Shown in pieces: positions 23,765 to 25,662 of a DNA stretch of 45,117 bases. The stretch comes from Bacteriovoracaceae bacterium (GTDB lineage Bacteria > Bdellovibrionota > UBA2394), in NCBI GenBank assembly GCA_028287765.1, contig JAQBPA010000073.1, positions 1 to 45,117 on the forward strand, given 5' to 3'. The translations under genes were made by a program, and so were the position numbers. Position 1 is the first letter of the stretch. Each line of letters begins with the position of its first letter. A model generated the notes under the pieces. It saw only the letters and a list, made by a program, of their open reading frames with translations, made no database searches and had not been told where the DNA came from.

Positions 23765-24715
23765 TTAGGCCCGCCGCCCAGGCGATATCACTCCCCATGC
23801 CTCAAGGGAGACATTCTTCCCTCTCCAACTCACAGAGTTCCCCATCAAGATGTGAATCCACATTGGAAAAGCCGACAACTCCCTAAGAATCCAGGAAAAT
23901 AAAAAAGTGAAATTCGTTTTCGGATCCATTTTCTTAGCCAAAATAAAATCACACAGTCCCCAGCTAAAAAAATGAAAGCAAAGGAATTTAAATACTAAGC
24001 CAGGAGCATAGAAAGACAAAAAAGGAGCTGCAAAAATAATCGAGCCAAGTGAACTTGCAAAAGGCTCTGTCAAAAAAACAAAAGGTGCATGAGCTTTTCT
24101 CATCCGGCCCCAGCGTAAATGTCTTGCCCAAAAGCTTTTAAAATTTATTTTAGAAAGATGCTGAATGACGGGTTTACGTGAAAGGACAATCTTCATTCCA
24201 AGATGTTTCATCGCAACGCCCGTCATATAATCTTCGGCAAGATAGATTCCTAAAGTTTTTAATCCGCCAAAACGATCCGCCATTTTTTTTTGGAACACCA
24301 TCGATTTTCCGATCACAAAGGGATAACCAAAGTTATCTGCCAGCAGCATCCAACGGGCGTAAAAAGTGTTGAGATACGTGGCTTCAAGTTTTGCCGAAAG
24401 ACTGTCAGCATTTCGGCCGCTGATCGCACTCGTCATCACGCCTACGTTCGCATCCAACTGCGATGCTAGCGAAGTGAGATAGTCGGCCTCGACTCTGACA
24501 TTACTATCACTAATCAGAATCCAATTGTGCTTCGCCTCTGCGTAACTCGCTACTAAGTTTTCAACCTTTGGATTCCAATCGTCACGCCGTTTGGAAACGA
24601 TCACTTTCGCTTCTACGCTTGGAAAAAGAGAGATGAGCTCTGTAACGATCGAATGCGCGGGATCTTGTTCGTCGGCAAGAGAAAAAATAATTTCGAAATT
24701 TGGATACTGGAGCAA
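23765..24715 (-). CDS. GT21-family glycosyltransferase (ceramide glucosyltransferase / HpnI-like); true start probably upstream, near 24907
   Basis: Similarity along the whole length to eukaryotic ceramide glucosyltransferase as I recall it: YPNFEI, WNPKVENL, ISDSNV, YLAEDY, RHLRWGRMR and a C-terminal VSWRG. The in-frame upstream 64 codons encode a TM helix plus PLSILKPLKGCDSDLRENLKSFF, which is the family N-terminus. Confidence 0.85.
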   Translation of the reverse strand: MLQYPNFEIIFSLADEQDPAHSIVTELISLFPSVEAKVIVSKRRDDWNPKVENLVASYAEAKHNWILISDSNVRVEADYLTSLASQLDANVGVMTSAISGRNADSLSAKLEATYLNTFYARWMLLADNFGYPFVIGKSMVFQKKMADRFGGLKTLGIYLAEDYMTGVAMKHLGMKIVLSRKPVIQHLSKINFKSFWARHLRWGRMRKAHAPFVFLTEPFASSLGSIIFAAPFLSFYAPGLVFKFLCFHFFSWGLCDFILAKKMDPKTNFTFLFSWILRELSAFPMWIHILMGNSVSWRGKNVSLEAWGVISPGRRA

Positions 24716-24876
24716 AAAGAAACTTTTCAGATTTTCTCTTAGATCACTGTCACAGCCTTTGAGTGGCTTTAAAATCGACAGGGGCGGAAAACCCGATTTC
24801 TTTTCTTCATTTGTCTGAAAGTGTCGAAAACTGAGCCAAGTTCCATAGAGCGTAAGTCCAAAAGGAACTAACCAAG

Positions 24877-25662
24877 TTAAACCGCAAAGGCCAGCGATGG
24901 TGTCCAGTTAATCAGCTCCTCTGTTTTTGGATACGCAAGAAATTGCTCCTCAGTTATAGGATGCGCAAGAGTTTGCTCCTCTTTAAAGTAGGTGAAGTCC
25001 AGTTTTTGCAGTCGAATACTTTCGAGGACGGATTCGACAGTGCGCTCGCAATCAAACGTCGTCTTCCAAGAATGGAAATGTCTCATGCCATGAAAATCAC
25101 TAGAAGCTATCTTCGGCAGATCGCTTTTTACAACATCGTCGAGAAGAGTCTGATGAAGGGTAATTTCCCAGGCATCGAATTCTGATCTCAGCTCCTCTCG
25201 TCGATCCCACAGGAGATAAGGATTTGCGGCCATTCGATTGGGCGAAAGTGGATGCGCAGCGATCGCTAGACCTCCTTGTGCGCGAATGGATCTCGCAATA
25301 TCAACAATATCCCTATCGGCAGAAATATATTCTGAAAGACCCAGTCCAAGAATATGCGACGATCGGTGATTCACGATCGAATTTTGCGTGAACTCGACTC
25401 CAGGAATCACGAGCATTCGATACATCTTCCAAGCACGTTCCGCTTCACTCTTTAAAATTTCTTGATAGAGAGGGAATGTCGCGCGCGTCAGTGTCTTTCC
25501 GAGATAAGCGGCCGCCTTTCCCAGAAAGGCTTTTTCTTCACAGAGATGATCCGTAATCGCTATGGCGCCAAAACCATGTTGGCCGTAGAGATCTATAATT
25601 TCTGGAATAGTAAGTTTGCCGTCGCTGAAGGTGGAGTGAATATGAAAATCTCCAATAATCAC
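24877..25662 (-). CDS. PHP-domain metal-dependent phosphoesterase
   Basis: N-terminal GDFHIHSTFSDGKLTIPEIIDLY...AITDH, with later His/Asp motifs (AAHP, SSDFHG). Confidence 0.85.
   Translation of the reverse strand: MIIGDFHIHSTFSDGKLTIPEIIDLYGQHGFGAIAITDHLCEEKAFLGKAAAYLGKTLTRATFPLYQEILKSEAERAWKMYRMLVIPGVEFTQNSIVNHRSSHILGLGLSEYISADRDIVDIARSIRAQGGLAIAAHPLSPNRMAANPYLLWDRREELRSEFDAWEITLHQTLLDDVVKSDLPKIASSDFHGMRHFHSWKTTFDCERTVESVLESIRLQKLDFTYFKEEQTLAHPITEEQFLAYPKTEELINWTPSLAFAV

Follow-up and report, generated by a model that had tools for sequence, protein, structure and literature searches.

A CTG codon as the probable start of a GT21 glycosyltransferase gene overlapping a PHP phosphoesterase gene in a Bacteriovoracaceae bacterium

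Where does translation begin in a gene whose conserved N-terminus lies upstream of every canonical start codon? The question is raised by a gene of the GT21 (ceramide-glucosyltransferase-like) family on contig JAQBPA010000073.1 of a Bacteriovoracaceae bacterium (GCA_028287765.1), the analysed stretch of which, 45,117 nucleotides in length, is referred to here as the window. The host is an uncultured bacterium of the predatory type, and the GT21 product is a membrane sugar transferase. The GT21 frame, on the minus strand, extends uninterrupted between the TAA at 24910-24908 and the stop at 23765, and the 64 codons from this TAA to the TTG at 24715-24713 include no in-frame ATG, GTG or TTG. The public gene call for the contig (P0003) employs TTG 24715 and yields a product of 316 residues. 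A preliminary description of the locus had placed the TTG, the TAA, two candidate start codons (CTG and ATC) and the translation of the 64 codons at positions which were all confirmed on the sequence (Table 1). A start-less stretch of 64 codons occurs in 11 of the 1756 long ORFs of the same genome (G000) and is not rare in itself; the unusual part is homology that reaches the first codon after the stop.

Table 1. Features of the PHP-GT21 locus in the window (positions are those of the whole stretch; a point marks a feature with no strand).
Feature	Position	Strand	Description
PHP-domain phosphoesterase gene, directly upstream of GT21	24877..25662	-	Last 31 nt overlap the GT frame; GT in the PHP+2 frame
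30-nt tandem repeat	24915..24982	.	2.3 copies, 81% matches (Tandem Repeats Finder); each copy begins GAGGAGC
Module 1 / mini-ORF 1	24954..24968	-	GAGGAG + 7 nt + TTG (24968), four codons, then TAA; PHP+1
Module 2 / mini-ORF 2	24912..24938	-	GAGGAG + 7 nt + TTG (24938), eight codons, then TGA 24914-24912; PHP+1
Module 3	CTG 24907	-	GAGGAG + 8 nt + CTG; PHP+2; opens the GT ORF
GAGGAG Shine-Dalgarno motif	24916..24921	-	8 nt before CTG; from sequence
In-frame TAA closing the GT frame directly before CTG	24908..24910	-	From sequence
CTG, proposed near-cognate start	24905..24907	-	First codon after the in-frame stop; aligned with Met1 of homologues
GT21 (ceramide-glucosyltransferase-like) ORF read from CTG	23765..24907	-	380 codons + stop; from translation, Pfam, HpnI model, alignment and profile match
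TTG, first canonical in-frame start	24713..24715	-	Used by the public gene call (316 aa); no Shine-Dalgarno motif upstream

The protein matches the Pfam family Glyco_transf_21 with 146.5 bits (E value 7e-43), well above the gathering cut-off of 21.7, and is accordingly a GT21 member. The best model in NCBIfam is HpnI (TIGR03472), the glycosyltransferase which supplies the glucosamine of bacteriohopanetetrol, and the alignment runs from end to end, with residues 3–373 of the CTG-started protein on model positions 3–369 of 373. However, the score of 222.9 bits lies below the equivalog cut-off of 310, and for this reason the protein is, as judged by the model, HpnI-like, and the name HpnI should be avoided; hopanoid genes were not observed next to the window gene. 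A profile built from 27 homologues matched the solved chains of ceramide glucosyltransferase (26qf and others) over positions 6–378 (E value 2.7e-92), which correspond to chain residues 17–389. This full-length likeness to the animal enzyme UGCG, likewise a GT21 protein, covers the N-terminal helix and the LKPLKG strand, and it extends to the D/D/ED residues and the RxxRW motif. Unlike UGCG, the window gene is paired with, and overlapped by, the gene of a PHP phosphoesterase. The catalytic residues D82, D134 and E225/D226, together with R262 and the R265-W266 of RxxRW, are kept in columns that are invariant with the window protein included, and the catalytic aspartates and the (Q/R)xxRW motif align with those of the solved enzyme, as expected for GT21. 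Within residues 1–64, all seven invariant and three near-invariant columns are retained (leave-one-out count). The preliminary description had read this segment as the N-terminal transmembrane helix followed by LKPLKG, and the HpnI model, the profile match and the conserved columns all bear this out. Judged from these comparisons, the 64 codons upstream of TTG 24715 are real coding sequence of the family and not a chance open frame, and the public product of 316 residues is most likely a truncation in which gene finders have cut off the first 64 residues.

In approximately 14 of 26 homologues, Met1 falls in the same alignment column as the leucine of CTG 24907. Both the conserved N-terminus, which reaches the first codon after the stop, and this alignment of Met1 favour initiation at the CTG. 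We consider it probable, at about 0.6, that translation starts at CTG 24907 under the direction of its Shine-Dalgarno motif, weakly but in working order, and provides full-length GT21 enzyme at low yield. The 30S subunit would bind GAGGAG eight bases upstream of the CTG at 24907-24905, the initiator tRNA would pair with CUG via two of its three anticodon bases, and the full enzyme of 380 residues, with its N-terminal membrane helix and LKPLKG strand, would be made at a low rate. The anatomy of the locus, the homology of the N-terminus, the place of the orthologous starts, the Shine-Dalgarno motif and the CTG in a second genome are observed; the use of the CTG and its efficiency are what we infer. 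In the same genome, AGGAG at a distance of 4–11 nt precedes 11% of unambiguous starts versus 0.5% of internal codons, and GAGGAG with its 8-nt spacing fits this usage. The other candidate in the preliminary description, ATC at 24898-24896, is ruled out by a distance of 17 nt from the same motif, and CTG alone was retained.

The position of the start was compared among 80 orthologous loci, mostly from Bdellovibrionota metagenome-assembled genomes (MAGs) at 33–49% identity, together with the locus of genome G025. In all of the 80, the start lies within a few codons of the CTG position. A canonical codon (ATG, GTG or TTG) occupies the equivalent position in 78 of them and CTG in the remaining two; the start codon nearest to the window CTG is ATG (60 loci), GTG (11) or TTG (8 to 10). 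A GGAG-type motif within the PHP coding sequence usually precedes these starts by 6–9 nt, and the CTG position is therefore the start site of the family. The LKPLKG segment is included in the orthologous proteins, and no locus starts at the equivalent of 24715. The two features that typify a near-cognate start, namely a conserved N-terminus upstream of every canonical start and a rare codon where orthologues start, are thus both found, and the 78 canonical starts at the same position, along with GAGGAG at 8 nt, further favour the CTG. The PHP-phosphoesterase/GT21 gene pair is itself conserved across the Bdellovibrionota (L012-L091, L002). A PHP gene is directly upstream of GT21 on the same strand in 55 loci; in 53 of these, GT begins in the PHP+1 frame, with an overlap of 80–113 nt (median 86), and the codons for the conserved FYxEE motif, which closes the PHP core, supply the ribosome-binding motif of the GT gene. 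The window, with its PHP+2 frame and an overlap of 31 nt (an overlap in another frame which had been correctly described beforehand), is an exception. Its PHP protein is 58% identical to that encoded upstream of GT21 in G025.

The two orthologous loci with CTG belong to a single genome, the MAG GFS_4791, in which they form paralogous PHP-GT21 operons (L022:2468 on JAYTRM010000168 and L049:2447 on JAYTRM010000274). Both proteins are intact and share 53% identity. The L022 start consists of GGAGG, 6 nt ending in an in-frame TGA, and CTG, which follows the stop directly as in the window; the next canonical codon is 14 codons further on and has no Shine-Dalgarno motif. In L049, AGGAGG and 6 nt precede the CTG, and no canonical codon is found downstream within the N-terminus. 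The results from tree reconstruction place L022 and L049 in a clade with L023 and L029 (support 95/85) and L061 as sister (87/87), and all three of these relatives start at TTG behind a Shine-Dalgarno motif. Occurrence of CTG at the same position, in genes whose clade-mates use TTG, favours initiation at CTG in the window as well, and suggests that weak starts are tolerated at this site or used for a low dose of a lipid glycosyltransferase. The window protein falls in the backbone of the tree with no resolved placement, and grouping all three CTG genes in one clade gains no support but is not rejected either (AU p = 0.106).

Additional near-cognate candidates were found in the window's own genome, where three long ORFs combine a start-less leader, a 5-mer Shine-Dalgarno motif 6–8 nt before a near-cognate codon, and upstream homology: GT21, a nadD-like gene and deoC. 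In the nadD-like gene (contig C2, 3140-3763, minus strand; L092:141-764:-), the first ATG, GTG or TTG is at codon 140 of the open frame. The match to TIGR00482 begins at residue 13, whereas the first canonical start is residue 134, i.e., 120 codons later. The candidate start is an ATT 6 nt behind GAGGAG, with an ATA one codon earlier, and the gene can only start at one of these two codons. The C2 copy is not necessarily essential, since a second nadD-like match is present on C75. For deoC (contig C44, 16271-17155, plus strand; L093:172-1056:+), the first canonical start is preceded, at a distance of 38 codons, by GGAGG + 6 nt + CTG, and the alignment with E. coli DERA begins approximately 10 residues before that start; with homology extending only this far, deoC is no more than suggestive as a second CTG start in the genome. 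The nadD-like and deoC candidates favour the CTG reading of GT21. It is weakened by CTG codons in start-less leaders genome-wide, among which a low-power test detected no enrichment of Shine-Dalgarno motifs (4 of 167 versus 1.7% overall). A further gene, TamA/BamA-like (contig C119, 98564-100291, plus strand; L094:165-1892:+), has a start-less leader of 91 codons which is coding-like and opens with a segment resembling a signal peptide; AAGG precedes an ATT by 9 nt, and a nearby T7 run could hide a frameshift.

A CTG start is an already known, uncommon kind of bacterial start. Natural near-cognate starts include AUU in infC and pcnB of E. coli, and ATT in infC and ATC in rnhC of Listeria (10.1101/063800; PMC13068326), and rare start codons are truly used by roughly 0.1–0.3% of genes (PMC13068326). 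As in the window, in natural cases with CUG, AUU, AUC or AUA the rare codon is located where orthologues have ATG, GTG or TTG, behind a strong Shine-Dalgarno motif, and gene finders truncate the protein. The start of infC has an autoregulatory logic, while no such logic is known for the window gene; its start module is, unlike those of the natural examples, part of a 30-nt tandem repeat with two TTG mini-ORFs upstream. The expected output of near-cognate starts is a few per cent of that of AUG (10.1101/063800; PMC13068326), and in E. coli initiation at CUG, AUA, AUC and AUU reaches approximately 1–2% of that at AUG, or 0.02–3% across constructs (bioRxiv 10.1101/063800). That CUG initiation is measurable in E. 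coli favours the CTG reading; that CUG is a poor initiator weakens it. A fairly well-supported CTG start is added for the Bdellovibrionota, and existing knowledge of initiation is unchanged.

The preliminary description had listed initiation at a near-cognate codon, a sequencing error and loss of the start without ranking them; the tripled Shine-Dalgarno-start module, the altered frame relative to PHP and the second genome with CTG are additions to it. The first is now favoured, and recent loss of the start stays as its main rival, unlikely on balance but to be taken seriously. According to this rival, a TTG (or ATG) start has become CTG, leaving the gene silent or almost silent, and the frame has survived the first step of pseudogenisation since little time has passed. 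The low activity of CUG relative to AUG in E. coli is in keeping with such a loss (10.1101/063800). So is the distribution of the gene in the same taxonomic family, where PHP is present in 7 of 13 genomes and a clear GT21 only in G004. G005 and G010 have PHP without GT21, and G001, of the same genus, has neither gene. The GT21 of G004 (L003:1630-1700) is split at approximately codon 65, where a T-run has five T and the frame needs six, and is otherwise intact; the split may reflect a true frameshift or an error in the homopolymer. GT21 therefore seems, from its presence and absence in these genomes, to be dispensable in the family. Moreover, outside the N-terminus the window protein carries substitutions at seven of 62 otherwise-invariant columns (G110D, N116E, D128N, G171S, G252S, G293A and G371W), while most homologues miss 0–2 and two others miss 6 and 8. 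Dispensability and the seven changes both weaken the CTG reading, as does the distance to any relative by which conservation of the CTG in its own lineage might be judged: in a protein search of 5.8 billion sequences, apart from the truncated call of the window itself, no sequence exceeded about 50% identity.

Against loss of the start stand the intact frame of 380 codons and a divergence relative to PHP that is average among the loci. When GT identity was regressed on the PHP identity of the same loci, the residual of the window was -0.003 (rank 25 of 53), and the ratio of N-terminal to remaining identity was 0.94 compared with a median of 0.86 (rank 47 of 53). By these measures the window GT has not diverged unusually, and conservation of its N-terminus matches that of the remainder. 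The Shine-Dalgarno motif has also been kept at a good spacing, and other genes of the same genome likewise lack canonical starts. Furthermore, all three start-less copies (the window, L022 and L049) carry CTG, the one near-cognate codon of the NTG type, and none has another mutational neighbour of TTG. The lack of decay in frame, divergence rank, N-terminal ratio and catalytic residues favours initiation at CTG.

The origin of the CTG may be reflected in the tandem repeat. Each copy begins with GAGGAGC, and the Shine-Dalgarno-start module is consequently present three times. The TTG of mini-ORF 1 occupies the position and frame (PHP+1) in which orthologues start GT21, mini-ORF 2 ends 4 nt before CTG 24907, and the third module opens the GT frame. 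The module was thus multiplied, the PHP overlap was reduced from about 86 nt to 31 nt, and the presumed working copy has CTG where the upstream copies have TTG. Since both upstream copies carry TTG, and the relatives of L022 and L049 use TTG, the window start most likely derives from a TTG by one T-to-C transition. The C-terminal tail of the window PHP (24877-24990, minus strand) is made up of two 10-residue repeats, EEQTLAHPIT and EEQFLAYPKT, followed by a short unrelated end; this tail replaces the one which overlaps the GT N-terminus in relatives. We also speculate, with considerable doubt, that the tripled module is a working expression device, in which the TTG mini-ORFs in the PHP tail would load ribosomes, and termination of mini-ORF 2 with re-initiation at the CTG would set a low, PHP-coupled dose of GT. 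If true, this would fit a conserved PHP/GT21 overlap in Bdellovibrionota that favours weak starts, GTG, TTG or CTG being found in about a quarter of the loci.

An error of base calling or assembly at the first base of the codon (24907), with ATG, TTG or GTG in the real genome, is improbable. The MAG is fragmented (270 contigs, 76% complete), and a single substitution would restore a canonical start. However, consensus substitution errors are rare in comparison with the roughly 0.1–0.3% of genes that truly use rare starts (PMC13068326), there are the further near-cognate candidates of the same genome, and CTG is found twice at the same position in another MAG. Nor does any single-base indel link the upstream TTGs to the GT frame, because TGA 24914-24912 and TAA 24910-24908 block both routes. 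When metagenome contigs were scanned for the exact sequence surrounding the start, the first base being set to N, no match was obtained, and so no second assembly of the window strain was available from this source.

It is somewhat harder still to credit that the N-terminus is reached without a start of its own, by frameshift fusion from the PHP frame or mini-ORF 2, or by re-initiation after the TGA of mini-ORF 2, 4 nt before the CTG, or after the TAA of PHP, 28 nt after it. The PHP and GT21 genes in the operon always overlap, and mini-ORF 2, which ends so close to the CTG, has a good Shine-Dalgarno motif and a TTG. Nevertheless, no slippery heptamer is present within the 31-nt overlap (24907-24877), a +1 shift at AGC-TGA runs into TAA, and every orthologue has a start of its own, with no fusion among them. 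With no slippery site, and with TGA and TAA stopping every single-shift route, frameshift fusion with PHP or the mini-ORFs was ruled out. Re-initiation would still need the CTG as start codon and is a variant of CTG initiation rather than a replacement. Least probable of all is that the product of 316 residues is the real protein, the upstream 64 codons being no longer translated: TTG 24715 is the first canonical start and the choice of the public call, but no Shine-Dalgarno motif precedes it, it corresponds to the start of none of the 80 orthologous loci, the membrane helix and the invariant P42, L46, K47, P48, N59, F63 and F64, conserved as far as the solved animal enzyme, would be lost, and the shorter database calls in three checked loci are artefacts of gene finders that avoid the overlap with PHP.

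For annotation, the public product of 316 residues is without the membrane helix and the first conserved strand, and in many genomes gene finders truncate the GT21 of the PHP-GT21 operon, owing either to a rare start or to the PHP overlap of about 86 nt. Database calls of GT21 are often cut by 36–48 codons despite a normal ATG, as the finder avoids the long overlap. Three short homologues that were checked as further start-less cases were rejected as such, since all have a normal ATG inside PHP and are truncations by the gene caller; the true ATG starts are L102:1066, L103:1093 and L104:1057, where the called starts are at 1201. In L102 and L103, GT21 is followed by a gene for a GH1 glycosidase.
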